Positions 1,713 through 8,895 of a DNA stretch of 64,000 nt are shown piece after piece. A model generated the notes under the pieces. That model was not told the DNA's origin. It saw nothing but the letters and a program-made list of their open reading frames with translations, and ran no database searches. Origin of the DNA: Escherichia coli (lineage in GTDB: Bacteria > Pseudomonadota > Gammaproteobacteria > Enterobacterales > Enterobacteriaceae); NCBI RefSeq assembly GCF_001677475.2, contig NZ_CP015229.1; one strand, given 5' to 3'. Every line of letters starts with the position of its first letter. The stretch's first letter is position 1. A program made the position numbers and the translations under genes.

Positions 1713-3065
1713 GTGTTTATTGGTTTTGATTACGGTACAGCAAACTGTTCAGTGGCGGTCATGCGCGACGGTAAGCCGCAATTACTGAAAATGGAAAACG
1801 ACAGCACGCTGCTGCCTTCAATGCTTTGCGCGCCAACGCGTGAAGCGGTAAGCGAATGGCTGTACCGCCATCATGATGTTCCGGCAGACGACGATGAAAC
1901 GCAGGCGCTGTTGCGTCGGGCGATTCGTTATAACCGCGAAGAAGATATCGATGTTACGGCGAAAAGCGTGCAGTTCGGTCTTTCCTCACTGGCACAGTAC
2001 ATTGATGATCCAGAAGAAGTGTGGTTTGTGAAATCACCAAAATCGTTCCTCGGTGCCAGCGGCTTAAAACCGCAGCAGGTAGCGCTGTTTGAGGATCTGG
2101 TCTGCGCAATGATGTTACACATTCGCCAACAGGCGCAGGCGCAGCTGCCGGAGGCAATTACTCAGGCGGTGATTGGTCGCCCGATCAACTTCCAGGGGCT
2201 GGGCGGTGATGAAGCAAACACCCAGGCGCAAGGGATTCTGGAACGCGCGGCGAAGCGTGCCGGGTTTAAGGATGTGGTATTCCAGTACGAGCCGGTCGCG
2301 GCCGGGCTGGATTACGAAGCCACCTTACAGGAAGAAAAACGGGTGCTGGTGGTGGATATCGGCGGTGGTACGACTGACTGTTCATTGCTGCTGATGGGGC
2401 CGCAGTGGCGTTCGCGTCTCGATCGTGAAGCCAGCCTGCTGGGTCACAGTGGTTGCCGTATTGGCGGTAACGATCTGGATATCGCACTGGCGTTTAAAAA
2501 CCTGATGCCGTTACTGGGCATGGGTGGCGAAACCGAAAAAGGCATCGCCCTGCCGATTCTGCCGTGGTGGAATGCGGTTGCCATCAACGACGTACCTGCG
2601 CAAAGTGATTTCTACAGTAGTGCCAACGGTCGTCTGCTTAACGATCTGGTACGCGATGCCCGCGAACCGGATAAAGTGGCCCTGTTACAGAAAGTCTGGC
2701 GTCAGCGTTTAAGCTATCGCCTGGTACGTAGCGCAGAAGAGAGCAAAATTGCGCTTTCAAGCGTAGCGGAAACCCGCGCCTCACTGCCGTTTATCAGCGA
2801 TGAACTGGCTACGCTGATTAGCCAGCAAGGGCTGGAAAGCGCCCTCAACCAGCCACTGGCGCGGATTCTGGAACAGGTGCAACTGGCGCTGGATAACGCC
2901 CAGGAAAAACCGGATGTTATCTATCTGACCGGCGGTAGCGCCCGTTCACCGCTGATTAAAAAAGCGCTGACAGAACAGTTGCCGGGCATTCCGATTGCAG
3001 GTGGCGATGACTTTGGCTCCGTCACCGCCGGGCTGGCACGCTGGGCGGAAGTGGTGTTTCGTTAA
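1713..3065 (+). CDS. yegD: Hsp70/actin-fold ATPase YegD
   Basis: Track ORF 1650..3065; GTG at 1713 gives a 450-aa product starting FIGFDYGTANCSVAV (DnaK-like phosphate-1 motif) with later DIGGGTTD motif. Start codon choice is inferred. Confidence 0.8.
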   Translation: MFIGFDYGTANCSVAVMRDGKPQLLKMENDSTLLPSMLCAPTREAVSEWLYRHHDVPADDDETQALLRRAIRYNREEDIDVTAKSVQFGLSSLAQYIDDPEEVWFVKSPKSFLGASGLKPQQVALFEDLVCAMMLHIRQQAQAQLPEAITQAVIGRPINFQGLGGDEANTQAQGILERAAKRAGFKDVVFQYEPVAAGLDYEATLQEEKRVLVVDIGGGTTDCSLLLMGPQWRSRLDREASLLGHSGCRIGGNDLDIALAFKNLMPLLGMGGETEKGIALPILPWWNAVAINDVPAQSDFYSSANGRLLNDLVRDAREPDKVALLQKVWRQRLSYRLVRSAEESKIALSSVAETRASLPFISDELATLISQQGLESALNQPLARILEQVQLALDNAQEKPDVIYLTGGSARSPLIKKALTEQLPGIPIAGGDDFGSVTAGLARWAEVVFR

Positions 3066-3077
3066 TTGAAAACTGGC

Positions 3078-5027
3078 TCAGCAGCGGCTTAAATCAGCCT
3101 GCGCCTGAGCCAGTTTTTCTGCCGCCTGACGTAACGGTTCCATCAACGGCATGGTCCGTGCTGGAGCATGAAGGCGGAATCGCTGCAACTCTGTCGCGCC
3201 GACTGTCAACGCCGATTCCAGCCGATGTCGTTTGGCGGCCATTTTTGCCATTACCGCTTGTCTGTCTGCAGGCGTTATCGCTTCATTCGGCCTGAACACA
3301 AAACGGCGTTCACAGCTCGCTTTCCAGTCGATAACCGCCTGGGTCAGATGGTCGCCAAACCCTTTCACTTGCTTAACACCACGACGGGTAACATCCGCTG
3401 CTGTTTCAATACCAAAGGACCGTAACGCCGCTTTACGCGCAGGGCCAACGCCGGGAATAGAGGCAACATCAATAAAAAATCCCTCCAGAAACTTCTGCTT
3501 CTGCCGTTCCCTTGCAGTGTCATGAAGTGCTGCCAGAGCGCGTTTCTCTTCTTCCGGTAACCCGAGAATTTCGTTCTTCATTTTTTCGAGCATCGTCCGT
3601 TTGGCGATAAAACCTTCCAGCCCGCCCAACTGTTGGATCTGGCTGACTAAATGGTCATAGTCCATTTTTGCGCGATTAAAAGCCTCTCTTCGTCGCTGGA
3701 CTTCTGCTTTGTACGCTTTGCTTGTCAGGCTGCCAATAATCCAGATAGCCGCCAGCACGGGAACCAAAATGATATAACGCGGTTCTACCTGAAGGCCGCA
3801 AAGCAGCAGCGATAATGCTGACAGTGCGATCTCAATCAGAATGATGTATTCACGCCGTAACAGGCCTAAAGGAAGCGGCCTGCCAGTCGGTTGGAAATGA
3901 TCGGGTAATGGTAATTGCAATGCTGGCGGTGCTACTGACGCCATCACCATCGCCCAGACTTTCGCCAGCACAAAATCACCACTGGTGGTAATGACCTCTT
4001 CGCCGAGATCAATAAAATAGATAACGCCTTGATTATCCAGCGCACACCACGGGCAGTCAGTCAAATGACCGGGGTAAACATGCATTGCCGAAACGGTACA
4101 TTTCTTTAACTGTTGGCGTAGTAAATCAAGTGCCGCTACCCACGCTTTTGCCGTCGGACGCGCGGTTGCCACGCCACTTTCCGTGAATGCCTGCTGAAAC
4201 ATGGCTTCAACATCGCCCGGTAACATCGACAGCGGAATAGATCGTGGCGGCGGTTTTAAACCACGCCGCTGATTATCTGACGCGTAGGCATAACGGAAAT
4301 GAGCAATATCCGTCTCCAGCGCATTCCCCGCATCAGAGATAAGCGGTACACCGGAATAAGGATGCCGACCACCAAACAAGACGTGAAAAATCAGCAACGC
4401 AAGGCCAAAATTATCGTGATTCGCGGTGCGTTCAAAGCCGACAAATGATGGCAATGTTTGCAGCTCTGGCGGCGTAAAATGCGACACGCCGACTTCGCAT
4501 AAATGCAGCGTGCCATTGGCGTTAATCTGAAAGGAGTCGCTATCAATCAACACCACTTTGCTGTCGCGACCTACCATAAAGCTGTTCTGGTTTACGTCCC
4601 CCACGACGTGCCCGTGCTCGTGAACCGTAGCAAAAGATGAAGCAATATTGCGCGCAACATAGAGTAGAAAATCCCACGCACAATGAGGGTAACTCTGGCG
4701 ACGATGTGCCGGGCTATAGATCATATGAATCGGTTCTTTACCAGAAACTTTTGGCATCATAAAACCGATAACTTTTCCGCCTCGTCCACCGTGAAGCGTT
4801 GCCTGCGGCCAGGCGACATAATTCAGCAACTGCGCGTCAGCTGTCGCAGCCATAAAGGCAAGTTTGTCCTGTTTTAATGCGGGTGGCGGCGTGTGATAAA
4901 TCTTGGCGACGCTATCGACAAACTCCTCGATATCATAAACCGCGCCTTCGCCACCTTTGCCCAGTTCACGGCCTGGCGTAACGCACTCACCAGTAGCAGT
5001 ATATAAAGTGTGTTTCATGGTAACCAC
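3078..5027 (-). CDS. yegI: Atypical Ser/Thr protein kinase with predicted TM hairpin and C-terminal helix-hairpin-helix region
   Basis: 649-aa ORF; Gly-rich GKGGEGAVY, VAKIY lysine, HVVGDVNQNSF catalytic-loop-like and DSDSF (DFG-like) motifs; hydrophobic stretch ~aa 395-440; VASIPGVGPARKAAL HhH-like motif. Confidence 0.8.
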   Translation of the reverse strand: MVTMKHTLYTATGECVTPGRELGKGGEGAVYDIEEFVDSVAKIYHTPPPALKQDKLAFMAATADAQLLNYVAWPQATLHGGRGGKVIGFMMPKVSGKEPIHMIYSPAHRRQSYPHCAWDFLLYVARNIASSFATVHEHGHVVGDVNQNSFMVGRDSKVVLIDSDSFQINANGTLHLCEVGVSHFTPPELQTLPSFVGFERTANHDNFGLALLIFHVLFGGRHPYSGVPLISDAGNALETDIAHFRYAYASDNQRRGLKPPPRSIPLSMLPGDVEAMFQQAFTESGVATARPTAKAWVAALDLLRQQLKKCTVSAMHVYPGHLTDCPWCALDNQGVIYFIDLGEEVITTSGDFVLAKVWAMVMASVAPPALQLPLPDHFQPTGRPLPLGLLRREYIILIEIALSALSLLLCGLQVEPRYIILVPVLAAIWIIGSLTSKAYKAEVQRRREAFNRAKMDYDHLVSQIQQLGGLEGFIAKRTMLEKMKNEILGLPEEEKRALAALHDTARERQKQKFLEGFFIDVASIPGVGPARKAALRSFGIETAADVTRRGVKQVKGFGDHLTQAVIDWKASCERRFVFRPNEAITPADRQAVMAKMAAKRHRLESALTVGATELQRFRLHAPARTMPLMEPLRQAAEKLAQAQADLSRC

Positions 5028-5776
5028 AGCGCCAGTGCCAACGTTTTATCATCATCGGTACGCTCGTTTACCGCCGGGCTGGACAAAAACTGCTTTAACA
5101 ATTCAGGTAATAAATCGAGTTGTTCCTGCGTTGCTGACACCAGCCCATTGAAAAACGGGGTAAAGAAAGGCACATGGGGAGAATTATCCAGCATATTTAA
5201 CGCCAGCCGCTGGATACCATCCGTAAATGCTGCAACTTTGTGCGCACGCTCAGTGCTGGTGAAAGTTTCCAGTCTGGAAACCGCATCTTCATCGGTAATG
5301 AAGTGCGTCATGTTGGCATATTCACCCACCATCGGCGTGAGCGGCAGTTGCAGACCGTGCCCCAAATCTACCACCACACCGCCGTCGCCAATCTGCATAA
5401 TCAGGGTGCCATTAGCTGATGAAATCAATCCCAGAAACGTGCAGGCAAAATCGCGAACAGCTAATTCTTTGGCTTCCGCCTCGGCAAAAAGTCGCTGACG
5501 AACGGTCAGCACAATATCCGTTGCGAGGACATCATTGAGCCCCAATTCCCCGCCCTGCACTTTTTGCATCATATAAGCCATCGCTTCATTGACGGCGAGC
5601 ATCGCGCCTTCGCCACCCTGCGAGACGCTACCTGCGCCATCGGCGACAAATACCGACAATAATGGCTGCTGGTCATTTAGCCAGGCAACCTGCATCTGGC
5701 AGGCATCCTGGCAAGGCAAGTCCGCGCTGATGTGCGACGTTCCAACGGTTGATGCATAGACCAGACGCCAGCTCAC
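5015..5776 (-). CDS. pphC: PP2C-family Ser/Thr protein phosphatase
   Basis: 253-aa ORF with VADGAGS and IGDGG metal-binding motifs typical of PP2C; its stop overlaps the yegI start by 13 nt. Confidence 0.8.
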
Positions 5777-6432
5777 ACTGACGTCCAGCCTTTTGGCGCT
5801 TCCAGCACAACTTCCGTTCCCGGCGTGGAGCGGGAAACCGAACGCAGCGAACTGGATAACCAGCTAAACAGTTCACGGAATTGTAATCCCTGCAGTGGCA
5901 AAGGCTGACGAACGCTGATTTGTGCCAGCGTCTTCATATCCGCCCCCTGAACGCCGATGGCAAAGAAGGCAAACTTCTTACCTTCTTCCCCCTGAAACAC
6001 TTTGTTGGCGGCTGCCTGCCACTCATCGGTTGGTGCACCATCAGTGATCATGAAAATCCACGGACGATAATAGGAAATACCATTGGCGCGATACTCACGT
6101 TTGCGCTCCTCAACCATATCCAGGGCTTTGGTAATGGCGGCCCCCATTGGTGTATCGCCCTGGGCAAACAGGATGGGCGGGAAAAAGTTAGCGGCGCTGG
6201 TAAAGGGTTGTTCCACATGCACTGGGCCGAACGTCACAATACCAAGTTCCACTCTTTTTAAGGCCAGCGGGTCGGCAAGCAGCTCATCGCGAAAGGTAAC
6301 CAATCCGGCGTTAAGTTCATTAATGGGTCTACCGTTCATCGAACCAGAAACATCCAGCAGCAAAATGCAGGGGCAACGTGGTTCCGGGTTACTGGCAAAA
6401 TCGCTGGTGGCAAACGTGATTTGTTCGCTCAT
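5773..6432 (-). CDS. yegL: von Willebrand factor A (VWA) domain protein
   Basis: 219-aa ORF with MIDAS motif [11 protein letters not shown]; its stop overlaps the pphC start (4-nt overlap), indicating translational coupling. Confidence 0.8.
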
Positions 6433-6613
6433 AAGAAATCCTTTCTTAGAGAATTATTGAGGTCCGGTATCATACCGATTGCAATAATGAAATAAGAGCA
6501 AACGAAGAAACTTTCAGAATTAGTCCCGGCGGCGCAGAAAATTTTGCTATTCGCCTCGCAAGAACGGAGAGCCGTCGATTGACACTAAGGGCGGAGTGAC
6601 ATAATTTCAGGAG

Positions 6614-6758
6614 TGAGGGTTAGGGAGAGGTTTCCCCCTCCCCCTGGTGTTCTTAGTAAGCCTGGAAGCTAATCACTAAGAGTATCACCAGTATGATGAC
6701 GTGCTTCATCATAACCCTTTCCTTATTAAAAGCCCTCTTCTCCGGGAGAGGCTTTCCC
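6614..6758 (+). ncRNA. sibA: Sib antitoxin sRNA antisense to ibs copy 1 (ends approximate)
   Basis: Sigma70-like promoter TTGACA (6579-6584), 17-nt spacer, TAATTT (6602-6607) on the plus strand; imperfect GC-rich hairpin plus short T-run at ~6731-6758; fully antisense to the ibs ORF. Confidence 0.6.
6653..6712 (-). CDS. ibsA: Ibs type I toxin, 19 aa (MMKHVIILVILLVISFQAY)
   Basis: Reverse complement of 6653..6712 translates to MMKHVIILVILLVISFQAY plus TAA; this matches the IbsA peptide as I recall it. Below the 60-aa track cutoff. Confidence 0.8.
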   Translation of the reverse strand: MMKHVIILVILLVISFQAY

Positions 6759-6948
6759 GTTTCAGCGTCCCGCTGAAATCGTCGGCTTACCTCCTTTCGC
6801 CCTGAATGCAGTCTATCGCTAACGCGTGAACAAAATAGTTTCCTCTGTGATTATTGCGTAACGACTCGCAAAGAATATTTGCTGGCAGGATCGCAGACTG
6901 CAAAGCCTGCAGATTGACAATCTTATCGTGAAGGCATACTTTCAGGAG

Positions 6949-7092
6949 TGAGGGTAGAGCGGGGGTTCCCCCGCCCTGGTAGTCTTAGTAAGCCGGGAAG
7001 CTTATGACTAAGAGCACCACGATGATGATCCACTTCATCATGACCCTTTCCTTATTTAAGGCCCCTTCCTCGGGAGGGGCTTTCCCGTTTCA
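6949..7092 (+). ncRNA. sibB: Sib antitoxin sRNA antisense to ibs copy 2 (ends approximate)
   Basis: Promoter TTGACA (6914-6919), 17 nt, TACTTT (6937-6942); hairpin gcccct/aggggc at ~7061-7080 followed by cttt. Confidence 0.6.
6985..7041 (-). CDS. ibsB: Ibs type I toxin, 18 aa (MMKWIIIVVLLVISFPAY)
   Basis: Reverse complement translates to MMKWIIIVVLLVISFPAY plus TAA; close to IbsB as I recall it. Confidence 0.75.
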   Translation of the reverse strand: MMKWIIIVVLLVISFPAY

Positions 7093-7276
7093 GCGTCCCG
7101 CTGAAATCATCGGCTTACCTCCTTTCGCCCTGAATGCAGTCTATCGCTGACTTGCGGATAAAATAGTTTCACATGTGATTATTGCGTAGCGTCTCGCAAA
7201 GAATATTTGCTGGCAGGATCGCAGACTGCAAAGCCTGCAGATTGACAATCTTATCGTGAAGGCATACTTTCAGGAG

Positions 7277-7416
7277 TGAGGGTAGAGCGGGGTTTCCCCC
7301 GCCCTGGTAGTCTTAGTAAGCTGGCCAGCTAATGACTAAGAGCACCACGATGATGAGTATCTTCATCATGACCCTTTCCTTATTTAAGACCCCTTCCTCG
7401 GGAGGGGCTTTCCCGT
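7277..7416 (+). ncRNA. Sib antitoxin sRNA antisense to ibs copy 3 (ends approximate)
   Basis: Promoter TTGACA (7242-7247), 17 nt, TACTTT (7265-7270); hairpin ccccttcctcgggagggg at ~7390-7408 followed by ctttcccgttt. Confidence 0.55.
7313..7369 (-). CDS. Ibs type I toxin, 18 aa (MMKILIIVVLLVISWPAY), third copy
   Basis: Reverse complement translates to MMKILIIVVLLVISWPAY plus TAA. Confidence 0.75.
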   Translation of the reverse strand: MMKILIIVVLLVISWPAY

Positions 7417-7576
7417 TTCAGCGTCCCGCTGAAATCGTCGGCTTACCTCCTTTCGCCATGCAAGCAGTCTATCGCTAACGCGTAGATAAAATAGTTTCAT
7501 GTGTTATTACTGGATGCGTGCTCGCAAATGTGCCCGTCATTCAGACGATTCCCGACAGTGTTTCATAATTCCTCCA

Positions 7577-7594
7577 TTTTTCTCCCTTATTGGC
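7577..7594 (+). promoter_or_regulatory. BaeR box upstream of mdtA
   Basis: tttttctcccttattggc closely matches the published BaeR consensus TTTTTCTCCATDATTGGC as I recall it; lies ~55 nt upstream of the mdtA start. Confidence 0.55.
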
Positions 7595-7647
7595 TGGCTA
7601 CACTAGTATCATTCCGCGAAACGTTTCAGGAAGAGAAACTCTTAACG

Positions 7648-8895
7648 ATGAAAGGCAGTTATAAATCCCGTTGGGTAATCGTAATCGTGGTGGTTATCGC
7701 CGCCATCGCCGCATTCTGGTTCTGGCAAGGCCGCAATGACTCCCGGAGTGCAGCCCCAGGGGCGACGAAACAAGCGCAGCAATCGCCAGCGGGTGGTCGC
7801 CGTGGTATGCGTTCCGGCCCATTAGCCCCGGTTCAGGCGGCGACCGCCGTAGAACAGGCAGTTCCGCGTTACCTCACCGGGCTTGGCACCATTACCGCCG
7901 CTAATACTGTTACGGTGCGCAGCCGCGTGGACGGTCAACTGATGGCGTTGCATTTCCAGGAAGGCCAGCAGGTCAAAGCAGGCGATTTATTGGCAGAAAT
8001 TGACCCCAGCCAGTTCAAAGTTGCATTAGCACAAGCCCAGGGCCAACTGGCAAAAGATAAAGCCACGCTTGCCAACGCCCGCCGTGACCTGGCGCGTTAT
8101 CAACAACTGGTAAAAACCAATCTCGTCTCCCGCCAGGAGCTGGATGCCCAACAAGCGCTGGTCAGTGAAACCGAAGGCACCATTAAGGCTGATGAAGCAA
8201 GCGTCGCCAGCGCACAGCTGCAACTCGACTGGAGCCGTATTACCGCACCAGTCGATGGTCGCGTTGGTCTCAAGCAGGTTGATGTTGGTAACCAAATCTC
8301 CAGTGGTGATACCACCGGGATTGTGGTGATCACCCAGACGCATCCTATCGATTTGCTCTTTACCCTGCCGGAAAGCGATATCGCTACCGTCGTGCAGGCG
8401 CAAAAAGCCGGGAAACCGCTGGTGGTAGAAGCCTGGGATCGCACCAATTCAAAGAAATTAAGCGAAGGCACGCTGTTAAGTCTCGATAACCAAATCGATG
8501 CCACAACCGGTACGATTAAAGTGAAAGCACGCTTTAATAATCAGGATGATGCGCTGTTTCCCAATCAGTTTGTTAACGCGCGCATGTTAGTCGACACCGA
8601 ACAAAACGCCGTAGTGATCCCAACAGCCGCCCTGCAAATGGGCAATGAAGGCCATTTTGTCTGGGTGCTGAATAGCGAAAACAAGGTCAGCAAACATCTG
8701 GTGACGCCGGGCATTCAGGACAGTCAGAAAGTGGTGATCCGTGCAGGTATTTCTGCGGGCGATCGCGTGGTGACAGACGGCATTGATCGCCTGACCGAAG
8801 GGGCGAAAGTGGAAGTGGTGGAAGCCCAGAGCGCCACTACTCCGGAAGAGAAAGCCACCAGCCGCGAATACGCGAAAAAAGGAGCACGCTCCTGA
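7648..8895 (+). CDS. mdtA: RND efflux membrane fusion protein
   Basis: Track ORF 7501..8895; ATG at 7648 gives 415 aa starting [26 protein letters not shown] (signal anchor). Stop overlaps the mdtB start. Confidence 0.9.

Follow-up and report, generated by a model that had tools for sequence, protein, structure and literature searches.

The yegL-pphC-yegI operon of an Escherichia coli chromosome: a compact, ancestral three-gene cassette that looks like the TerY-P type

In laboratory K-12 the E. coli genes for a von Willebrand A (VWA) protein, a phosphatase and a kinase are split by a further gene, yegJ, and at the corresponding place in other strains they are not; which of these arrangements is ancestral, and what kind of system does the triad encode? 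The question is raised here by a stretch of 64,000 nucleotides of contig NZ_CP015229.1 (assembly GCF_001677475.2; the window), in which yegL, pphC and yegI are consecutive on the minus strand. A preliminary description made from the sequence read them as a translationally coupled operon and a possible signalling or conflict module. We conclude, with a probability of roughly 0.8, that this part of the window is the chromosomal E. coli yegL-pphC-yegI operon in its uninterrupted and ancestral form, a three-gene cassette of TerY-P type. Much of this has been published: the operon, its compact form, the ATGA overlap, the difference between B and K strains, the topology of YegI, and the dephosphorylation of YegI by PphC (the overlap and the difference from K-12 in 2018 and 2020 by Rajagopalan and Dworkin, and again in RNA Biol 2026). 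The compact finding itself thus repeats published knowledge, and the arrangement is an ordinary one, shared by about two thirds of E. coli. New here are the TerY-like character of YegL, the finding that, of four contexts examined outside Escherichia, three place the cassette next to defence genes, and the recognition that the K-12 form is a replacement of 53 nt with a diverged kinase N-terminus, and not a clean insertion.

All three reading frames are intact, with catalytic and MIDAS residues present, and they are flanked by yegD on one side and by ibs/sib repeats and mdtA on the other, as judged from open reading frames and Rfam Sib RNAs. Annotated E. coli genomes have a layout identical to that of the window at this locus, and the gene-by-gene DNA identity of the triad to these loci is 96-97.5%. 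The preliminary description had given overlaps of 4 nt and 13 nt for the two junctions: both junctions do overlap, and the figure for yegL/pphC stands, but the pphC/yegI overlap is likewise 4 nt (Table 1). An overlap of 4 nt speaks for translational coupling, although alone it is no proof of 1:1 stoichiometry. The discrepancy lies in the choice of start codon, as the ATG at 5018 produces an overlap of 4 nt and the first in-frame GTG, at 5027, one of 13 nt. We place the start of yegI at the ATG because it is the RefSeq start in compact-type genomes, because the 646-aa protein that begins there is the one that was cloned and assayed (Rajagopalan and Dworkin 2018), and because all members of the family line up from it in an alignment of their N-termini; the upstream GTG is used neither in annotation nor in published work. 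A scan of the window for consensus promoters and terminators found none beyond what shuffled sequence gives, either ahead of yegL or between the genes.

Table 1. Features of the yegL-pphC-yegI operon in the window
Feature	Position	Strand	Basis
yegL, 219-aa TerY-like von Willebrand A protein	5773..6432	-	ORF, Pfam, tblastn
yegL/pphC stop-start overlap GTGA, 4 nt	5773..5776	-	read from sequence
pphC (yegK), 253-aa PP2C-type Ser/Thr phosphatase, GTG start	5015..5776	-	ORF, Pfam PP2C_2 1.8e-50
pphC/yegI stop-start overlap ATGA, 4 nt	5015..5018	-	read from sequence
53 nt specific to the compact form (yegI codons 1-16 and last two pphC codons)	4971..5023	-	alignment, three E. coli loci
yegI, 646-aa inner-membrane Hanks-type Ser/Thr kinase	3078..5018	-	ORF, RefSeq start, homology
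YegI kinase domain, ~residues 18-300, with G-loop GRELGKGGEG	4119..4967	-	alignment invariants, Foldseek, published motif analysis
YegI putative zinc-binding module, C307-x5-H313-x8-C322-P-W-C325	4044..4100	-	invariant columns
YegI two-helix membrane hairpin, ~residues 391-434	3717..3848	-	hydropathy, model, published topology
YegI cytoplasmic C-terminal domain, residues 441-646, long antiparallel coiled-coil stalk	3081..3698	-	AlphaFold model
YegI double helix-hairpin-helix (HhH) tip, ~residues 515-571	3306-3476	-	model, Pfam, motifs

The operon of E. coli B (REL606) and O157:H7, for which the ATGA overlap has been reported (Rajagopalan, Nagle and Dworkin 2018), shares with the window the yegD-mdtA locus, the three genes and the 646-aa hairpin kinase; the differences are allelic only, with proteins 96-98% identical, and include His at YegI residue 3 of the window against Pro in the B/O157:H7-type allele. 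YegI is also 96-98% identical to the E. coli clusters named 'protein kinase YegI', and the best 5-kb match to the window reaches 97.2%. With regard to K-12, the junction comparison that the preliminary description had proposed was run, and its account of the gene order was correct: in W3110, yegJ lies between yegI and pphC on the opposite strand and interrupts the junction, whereas the window has no yegJ and its two genes overlap directly. Outside the junction, the K-12 locus shares with the window the flanking genes and all three proteins. Across 5,426 complete E. coli genomes, a 74-nt query spanning the site found the compact junction in 3,471 (none identical to the window over those 74 nt) and yegJ is present in 1,925 (~35%), so that the two forms together account for 5,396 genomes. 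In one E. coli strain, IS1 stands in place of yegJ.

Alignment of the window with three E. coli loci reveals that the K-12 form exchanges the 53 nt of the compact form for approximately 790 AT-rich nt, which is a replacement and not a clean insertion. This insert has a GC content of 38% (the triad has about 52%), and it contains yegJ (DUF2314), an 11-bp hairpin between the stop codons of the converging pphC and yegJ, and altered ends of both interrupted genes: PphC terminates in WTE instead of the WLP of the compact form, and the kinase begins with a diverged N-terminus of 18-19 residues (MKTNIKVFTSTGELTTLG), the proportion of synonymous differences between the two forms (pS) being 0.59 over the first 17 yegI codons. 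Judged by its sequence, the K-12-type segment brings a foreign kinase N-terminus. A phmmer search for its donor (32 residues against 1.84 billion representatives) returned E. coli fragments only, and this N-terminus occurs in none among the 120 homologues listed; nor were remnants of pphC, yegL, yegD or mdtA found inside the insert.

No interruption occurs in any outgroup or distant homologous cassette examined, and the compact operon is therefore ancestral and the yegJ segment a gain of K-12-type strains; the two possibilities offered by the preliminary description, an insertion in K-12 or an ancestral compact operon, both hold. E. marmotae has an uninterrupted cassette at the corresponding alkA-yegD...mdtA locus, and its triad genes are as similar to those of E. 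coli (86-92% identity) as its flanking genes are, a pattern that indicates vertical descent in Escherichia. The reverse polarity, in which E. coli began with the K-12 arrangement and a deletion of yegJ produced the compact operon, has some points in its favour: the closest homologue of yegJ (75% amino acid identity) sits in the yegD-mdtA interval of Superficieibacter, about 100 nt upstream of the gene are alignable there too, this level of divergence is within that spanned by the neighbouring orthologues (YegD 86-87%, MdtA 81-82%, AlkA 61-68%), and yegJ-type segments from different E. coli are up to ~5% apart, so that this form is old. A deletion, however, could not restore the exact ATGA overlap together with a family-type N-terminus, and the compact junction and the MK(S/P)TLYTATGECVTP N-terminus are common to E. 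marmotae and other non-coli Escherichia. The yegJ segment is, moreover, AT-rich compared with the operon, a scan of 100,044 species genomes found yegJ in no Escherichia representative besides E. coli strains, and the distant cassettes examined all lack an interruption; we consider an ancestral K-12 arrangement highly improbable. The yegD-yegJ-mdtA loci of Superficieibacter were searched for remnants of the triad and contained none, and none of 80 yegJ-family loci from the species-genome scan has triad genes within 10 kb. Two E. coli yegJ proteins that seemed divergent (78-79% identity) were dropped, as their assemblies are frameshift-ridden.

The ancestral compact operon encodes three proteins whose features bear on its function. 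YegL matches Pfam VWA (3.5e-9) and VWA_2 (9.6e-7), has the MIDAS motif DxSxS at residue 27 (D27-x-S-x-S31), and in tblastn is 29-34% identical (E 1e-12 to 1e-17) to VWA/TerY-C proteins belonging to the terW-terY-terX cluster of IncHI2 and Klebsiella plasmids; these alignments make YegL a homologue of the TerY VWA proteins. PphC, in which the catalytic D46 is retained, is a Mn-dependent PP2C phosphatase that strips phosphate from YegI (Rajagopalan and Dworkin 2020). YegI is an autophosphorylating inner-membrane Ser/Thr kinase with both termini in the cytoplasm and with several canonical kinase residues absent (Rajagopalan, Nagle and Dworkin 2018). Residues K39, D141, D159 and S162 are all present in the window, and every Foldseek match of the YegI model is a protein kinase; Pfam Pkinase does not match, NCBIfam gives generic sub-threshold matches only, and the kinase domain of the full-length model has a pLDDT of 30-60.

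Directly C-terminal to the kinase domain, C307, H313, C322, P323, W324 and C325 are invariant in 47 YegI homologues and may form a zinc-binding module; the region is modelled as a beta-hairpin followed by a helix (pLDDT 62-77), with no profile match and none in Pfam. YegI continues for ~320 residues beyond it. Hydropathy peaks at ~391-410 and 414-434, and model helices at 389-409 and from 418 onward, bear out the membrane hairpin proposed in the preliminary description and agree with the published PhoA-LacZ topology (Rajagopalan, Nagle and Dworkin 2018), the periplasmic loop between the helices being a few residues only. The coiled-coil C-terminal domain is modelled with a mean pLDDT of 93.2. 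The HhH-like motif proposed for it is real though weak in Pfam (HHH_5, E = 0.0025, residues 515-550), and two motifs, PGVGPARKAAL and GFGDHLTQAV, are directly readable. From this match and inspection of the motifs, we infer that the tip may bind DNA; overproduced YegL and YegI have each been scored as DNA-damage-promoting proteins. A profile built from the 47 homologues matched no solved structure by sequence, and Foldseek with residues 441-646 gave no significant whole-domain match among solved structures. The coiled-coil matches that it did give, such as dynein stalk, SMC and RecN, were non-significant, and the assignment is restricted to a coiled-coil stalk with an HhH tip.

Taken together, the cassette looks like a conflict module of TerY-P type, and the signalling or conflict role suggested for it in the preliminary description fits the published concept of the TerY-P triad. 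This triad (Anantharaman, Iyer and Aravind 2012) is described as joining the gene of a TerY-like VWA protein to those of a PP2C phosphatase and a Ser/Thr kinase, in that order, the kinase being fused C-terminally to a zinc ribbon or, in the variant of Gao et al. (2020), to an OB fold; the latter study treats TerY-P as a defence system, with anti-phage activity of related modules. The cassette agrees with this description in its TerY-like VWA protein with MIDAS and in the adjacent PP2C phosphatase and Ser/Thr kinase, which follow in the same order. The small Cys/His module of YegI, which lies where the TerY-P kinases have their zinc ribbon, may be a further parallel, as may a position near restriction or other defence genes, which the cassette has in three of four non-Escherichia contexts and not at the E. 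coli locus. The TerY-P kinases, so described, end in a zinc ribbon or OB fold, whereas YegI also spans the membrane with a hairpin and ends in a coiled-coil arm that bears a double HhH tip. The PADLOC TerY-P models, searched up to E = 10, did not recognise the proteins as members: YegL scored 12.6 bits on TerY (E = 0.017), PphC had no match, and YegI gave weak generic kinase matches only (PD-T4-6, E = 2e-4). In the literature searched, there is no report of phage protection, or of tellurite or stress resistance, by the E. coli operon, nor is it known to confer any other phenotype.

The single co-directional, overlapping cassette of the preliminary description recurs in other genera, with gene order and architecture conserved in E. 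marmotae, Klebsiella spallanzanii, Chromobacterium and Piscinibacter, and with the 4-nt yegL/pphC overlap in the last three as well. The Klebsiella, Piscinibacter and Chromobacterium cassettes and one metagenomic cassette are uninterrupted and lie elsewhere than at the E. coli locus; the distribution is patchy, Klebsiella and beta-proteobacterial copies are 57-63% identical, and homologues occur on 74 non-E. coli plasmids. By these comparisons the cassette is mobile between genera, keeps the same protein lengths and is carried on large plasmids. Its neighbours are a GmrSD-type Orf5 (2e-213) in Klebsiella, JetB (3e-93), PDC-S36 (4e-95) and a WYL regulator in Piscinibacter, and PifA (1e-118) and AbiH (8e-20) in Chromobacterium, which amounts to defence genes in three of four contexts, a small sample; the metagenomic copy has purely housekeeping neighbours. 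The E. coli locus has an efflux pump, a chaperone-like gene and the Ibs/Sib toxin-antitoxin repeats around it, and no classical defence island.

We propose that one transcript and coupled translation would supply YegL, PphC and YegI, that YegI and PphC would act as an on/off switch held off by PphC, and that the MIDAS domain of YegL would serve as a metal- or ligand-dependent sensor or adaptor. Through its coiled-coil arm and double HhH tip, the membrane-anchored YegI could touch DNA near the inner membrane, and the output would most likely be an anti-phage or stress response, in keeping with what has been suggested for TerY-P triads. Strains of K-12 type have yegI parted from pphC by the yegJ segment, and the kinase would there need its own promoter and ribosome-binding site. 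A more far-reaching combination, which we offer as a doubtful one, makes the triad a membrane-anchored, TerY-P-type anti-phage or DNA-sensing switch, its HhH-tipped arm detecting DNA at the inner membrane, and the yegJ cassette an old mosaic import, joined on one side through recombination inside the stretch of a foreign kinase gene that encodes the conserved G-loop. The yegJ polymorphism (35% of E. coli) would then persist because it uncouples kinase from phosphatase, and enterobacteria would share, in the yegD-mdtA interval, a conserved hotspot of conflict genes. Apart from this, what the locus points to is a conserved yet silent TerY-P-like kinase/phosphatase/VWA cassette in E. coli, with a natural polymorphism that splits kinase from phosphatase in about one third of strains, laboratory K-12 included. 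Should the cassette serve as a switch in defence or stress, work in K-12 may concern a rewired version, and compact strains would be the better experimental background.

The same triad might be a housekeeping signalling pair with YegL as an accessory, acting in normal physiology (envelope, growth phase, translation) through Ser/Thr phosphorylation. Like the Hanks-type pairs PrkC/PrpC and PknB/PstP of Gram-positive bacteria, YegI/PphC combines an autophosphorylating membrane kinase with an adjacently encoded PP2C phosphatase that resets it, a classical pairing; its inheritance at one chromosomal locus since before the split of E. coli and E. marmotae, its presence in nearly all E. coli (5,396/5,426 genomes), the purifying selection on it, and the published difference in transcript levels between adherent-invasive and other strains would all suit such a role. 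YegI also differs from those kinases in lacking several canonical kinase residues and a Pfam Pkinase match. Against the housekeeping reading, it has no extracellular PASTA or other sensor domain, both of its termini being cytoplasmic, and the system includes a VWA partner of TerY-like kind. The patchy taxonomy, the homologues on large plasmids, the defence genes adjoining the cassette in three of four other genera, and the silence of the operon in standard growth also speak against housekeeping, which we regard as unlikely.

That silence could instead mark a cryptic, functionless remnant that drifts towards loss, with yegJ as one of several inactivating lesions. Under laboratory conditions, expression of the operon escaped detection (Rajagopalan and Dworkin 2018, 2020; RNA Biol 2026), and published work has so far found no condition for it; of ten E. 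coli loci sampled, two carry a frameshift in yegI, and a further strain has IS1 in place of yegJ, nucleotide diversity at the operon is raised, and recurrent yegI mutations in the long-term evolution experiment are cited in Rajagopalan and Dworkin (2020). Set against these lesions, all three genes are under purifying selection: dN/dS is ~0.06-0.15 for each gene and for every domain of YegI, both within E. coli and against E. marmotae (for yegI, computed on a codon alignment), which speaks against a functionless remnant and leads us to rate one as quite improbable. The catalytic and MIDAS residues of the window likewise argue against decay, K-12-type yegI is still a full reading frame whose N-terminus is genuinely of the family type, and purified YegI and PphC are active (Rajagopalan and Dworkin 2018, 2020).

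In the ORF list of the window, three minus-strand genes follow one another, yegL, pphC (also yegK) and yegI, encoding a VWA protein, a PP2C phosphatase and a Ser/Thr kinase (table). Taken mechanically, the yegI ORF begins at GTG 5027 and overlaps pphC by 13 nt. The start at ATG 5018 is better supported, because RefSeq annotates it in genomes of the compact type (those with an uninterrupted pphC/yegI junction), because the 646-residue protein that was expressed and found active begins there, as described by Rajagopalan et al. (2018), and because all homologue N-termini line up from that position. The presence of the GTG is accounted for by pphC coding, since LALW, a conserved motif at the C-terminus of PphC, has its Trp codon (TGG) at 5024-5026, overlapping that GTG. 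With ATG 5018 as the start, each junction is a 4-nt overlap; the preliminary description, which gave overlaps of 4 nt and 13 nt, was therefore right about overlap at both junctions and about the 4 nt, while its 13 nt arises from GTG 5027.

Features of the yegL-pphC-yegI locus and its surroundings, in window coordinates
Feature	Position	Strand	Remarks
yegL-pphC-yegI cassette	3078-6432	-	three genes in succession
yegL	5773-6432	-	219 aa; Pfam VWA 3.5e-9, also VWA_2; MIDAS DxSxS at residue 27
pphC	5015-5776	-	253 aa; GTG start; Pfam PP2C_2 1.8e-50; catalytic D46 retained
yegI	3078-5018	-	646 aa from ATG at 5018; gene end 3078
GTGA overlap, yegL/pphC	5773-5776	-	read directly
ATGA overlap, pphC/yegI	5015-5018	-	read directly
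Segment replaced in K-12-type genomes	4971-5023		53 nt; yegI codons 1-16 and last two pphC codons
YegI Cys/His cluster	4044-4100		C307-x5-H313-x8-C322-P-W-C325
yegD/yegI stop codons	3065-3078	+/-	convergent; 12 nt between stop codons
Sib/Ibs repeat 1	6579-6727	+	Sib antitoxin RNA / Ibs type I toxin
Sib/Ibs repeat 2	6914-7056	+	Sib antitoxin RNA / Ibs type I toxin
Sib/Ibs repeat 3	7242-7384	+	Sib antitoxin RNA / Ibs type I toxin
mdtA, mechanical ORF	7501-8895		begins at GTG 7501

The gene order in K-12 W3110 is yegI (-), yegJ (+), pphC (-), yegL (-), confirming that K-12 carries yegJ between yegI and pphC, as the preliminary description had stated; compared with the window, K-12 has no direct pphC/yegI overlap, as yegJ intervenes. 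When 5,426 complete E. coli genomes were searched with a 74-nt query across the compact junction and with a yegJ segment query, 3,471 matched the former, 1,925 the latter and ~30 neither, making the compact form the majority (64%, against 35% for the yegJ form). A 2026 paper that places yegJ in K strains only understates its spread. In Escherichia marmotae the cassette occupies the equivalent alkA-yegD...mdtA locus without interruption, its triad 86-92% identical in DNA to that of E. coli, in line with the flanking genes, and the YegI proteins of other non-coli Escherichia have 646 residues and the compact-type N-terminus. Unlinked cassettes are likewise uninterrupted in Klebsiella spallanzanii, Piscinibacter aquaticus, Chromobacterium haemolyticum and a metagenome; the three species have protein calls of ~219, 253 and 646-652 aa, and on the metagenome contigs the phosphatase is called shorter (212 aa). 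The VWA-to-PP2C overlap of 4 nt is retained in all three species and the PP2C-to-kinase overlap in the Enterobacteriaceae, the beta-proteobacteria having a 7-9-nt spacer instead. From this evidence the compact operon is the ancestral state and the K-12 form a derived one; of the two alternatives raised for this strain, a gain in K-12 and an older compact operon, both hold.

The K-12 form is a replacement rather than a clean insertion, in which the 53 nt of the window correspond to ~790 nt in K-12-type genomes. Along the plus strand, the K-12 segment comprises an altered yegI 5' end, MKTNIKVFTSTGELTTLG in place of the compact 16-residue N-terminus; a 200-nt spacer of 31.5% GC; yegJ; 64 nt with an 11-bp GC-rich hairpin (about -19 kcal/mol, z about -3) without a T tract; and a PphC end reading WTE, versus WLP in the compact form. 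The whole insert has a GC content of 38% (operon ~52%), and the left boundary of the replacement coincides exactly with the first codon of the G-loop motif (GRELGKGGEG), where the family is most conserved. The K-12-type kinase N-terminus fits the family consensus F-T-S-x-G ... L-G-R-E-L-G, and most of its synonymous sites differ from the compact one (proportion of synonymous differences, pS, 0.59; of non-synonymous differences, pN, 0.30); the pS of 0.59, against 0.36 for compact E. coli versus E. marmotae, indicates that this N-terminus originated in another, more remote kinase gene. A search for the donor among 1.84 billion representatives returned E. coli fragments only, and the K-12 insert holds no other triad remnant. 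Homology in the G-loop region would have mediated one junction of the replacement, the opposite junction being illegitimate. The yegJ segments vary by up to ~5% among sampled E. coli, a divergence that points to an old yegJ form.

Close relatives of yegJ were found only in the sister genus Superficieibacter (scan of 100,044 species genomes), where the gene, oriented as in E. coli, is flanked by yegD and mdtA and the triad is absent. Superficieibacter YegJ is 75% identical in protein to E. coli YegJ, a value inside the span seen for the orthologues on either side (YegD 86-87%, MdtA 81-82%, AlkA 61-68%), and ~100 nt 5' of the start codon also align. This synteny does not overturn the polarity in which the compact operon is ancestral. 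Triad genes were near none of 80 yegJ-family loci; yegJ and the triad are thus not generally linked. E. coli YegJ (comparison locus L002, 4226-4687; alignment A2) starts with a typical secretion signal, MKKILLMLSLLFFTTAGFS; the lipoprotein box ending in Cys, present in most homologues, is lost in E. coli. The 2026 paper, which also redraws the synteny of the locus, lists YegJ as cytoplasmic and binding RNase E, which sits uneasily with the predicted export.

Within E. coli (window 3078-6432 versus comparison loci L001-L003, L094 and L098-L102), the triad genes exceed yegD in diversity: the lowest pairwise identities are 91.6% for pphC and 93.6% for the yegI 3' half, versus 97-99.8% in yegD, and mean dS is 0.13-0.18, two to three times the 0.07 of yegD. 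With dN/dS at ~0.06-0.15 for all three genes and each YegI domain, purifying selection acts on every one of them, and the alleles do not segregate cleanly with yegJ state. The O157 pphC is ~92% identical to that of other strains, and the best complete E. coli genome match to a 5-kb query (window 2500-7500) is 97.2%, with alkA and yegD matching at 99%. Natural lesions include yegI frameshifts in two of ten sampled E. coli loci (AR Bank #0346 and ETEC4089; L099, L100), a yegJ frameshift in strain CPF6 (L102) and an IS1 in place of yegJ in strain PCP06021 (L103).

YegI has no Pfam Pkinase match; the published functional residues K39, D141, D159 and S162 are all present in the window's protein, and the full-length AlphaFold model, weak in the kinase domain, nonetheless matches protein kinases only in Foldseek. 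The membrane hairpin that had been proposed corresponds to two hydrophobic segments (~391-410 and 414-434), in agreement with the PhoA-LacZ topology of Rajagopalan et al. (2018), which places both termini in the cytoplasm. The proposed C-terminal HhH-like motif stands as HhH, with a weak Pfam match only (HHH_5, residues 515-550, E = 0.0025); residues 441-646, modelled separately with confidence (mean pLDDT 93.2), fold in the model into a long antiparallel coiled-coil stalk tipped by a small double helix-hairpin-helix unit, a domain for which Foldseek returned no significant match among solved structures and the family profile no solved relative by sequence. Just C-terminal of the kinase domain lies a Cys/His cluster, invariant in 47 of 47 aligned homologues, that is probably a zinc-binding module akin to the zinc ribbon carried by TerY-P kinases; the YegI literature passages found by keyword make no mention of it.

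In the literature consulted, the TerY-P triad consists of a VWA protein of the TerY type, a PP2C-family phosphatase and a Ser/Thr kinase with a fused zinc ribbon, and is a proposed metal-sensing phosphorylation switch tied to restriction and to DNA processing; a variant whose kinase has an OB fold confers protection from T7-like phages (Gao et al. 2020). YegL matches VWA and TerY-C proteins encoded in the terW/terX cluster of IncHI2 and Klebsiella plasmids (29-34% identity, E 1e-12 to 1e-17), so the VWA partner is TerY-like. By defence-profile matches, the cassette neighbours a GmrSD-type Orf5 (2e-213) in Klebsiella; JetB (3e-93), PDC-S36 (4e-95) and a WYL regulator in Piscinibacter; and PifA (1e-118) and AbiH (8e-20), beside Tn7-like genes, in Chromobacterium; the fourth non-Escherichia context, the metagenome, has housekeeping genes. 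Homologues occur on 74 non-E. coli plasmids, many conjugative, and 50,697 phage records gave one weak partial match only (27% identity over half the query). Several E. coli "plasmid" records matching yegI (H57, H58, H61; 4.8-4.9 Mb) are evidently chromosomes, and so do not represent plasmid carriage. Overproduction of either YegL or YegI increases DNA damage in E. coli, which fits a DNA-directed activity. The cassette has TerY-P architecture and probably works like a TerY-P triad; it is not classed as a detected member of the curated defence family, because the PADLOC TerY-P profiles do not recognise its proteins. The reading of the operon as a signalling or conflict module thus gains from this architecture, the TerY-like YegL and the defence neighbours in other genera.

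According to Rajagopalan et al. (2018) and Rajagopalan and Dworkin (2020), YegI autophosphorylates and is dephosphorylated by PphC; these and the 2026 paper give no known expression condition for the operon. The same two studies already contain the compact and K-12 arrangements with the ATGA overlap, as well as the membrane hairpin and the relation between kinase and phosphatase; the original finding, soundly read from the sequence, is correct but already known. Some novelty lies only in the yegJ cassette as an old mosaic, the Superficieibacter synteny and the TerY-like and defence-island evidence, which are leads, not results.

The yegD-mdtA interval may be an integration hotspot. Conflict genes gather there in other Enterobacteriaceae: in Superficieibacter electus (L009 6914-11261) it holds type VI immunity/effector-like genes (SUKH, Tli3, Tle3_C, Imm52), and in one E. 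marmotae genome (L005 759-2892) type III effector genes (NleG, AvrPphF-like) adjoin yegL upstream of an Ibs toxin gene. No terminator-like hairpin was detected between the yegD and yegI stop codons, so the two transcripts probably run into each other's gene. Alignment with annotated genomes puts the mdtA start at ~7648, and the N-terminal extension of the mechanical ORF is probably not translated. Between yegL and mdtA, the three tandem Sib/Ibs repeats recur with a ~330-nt period (Rfam 138-150 bits), their number varying by strain from two in K-12 W3110 to three in the window strain and O157 and four in EC-1639.
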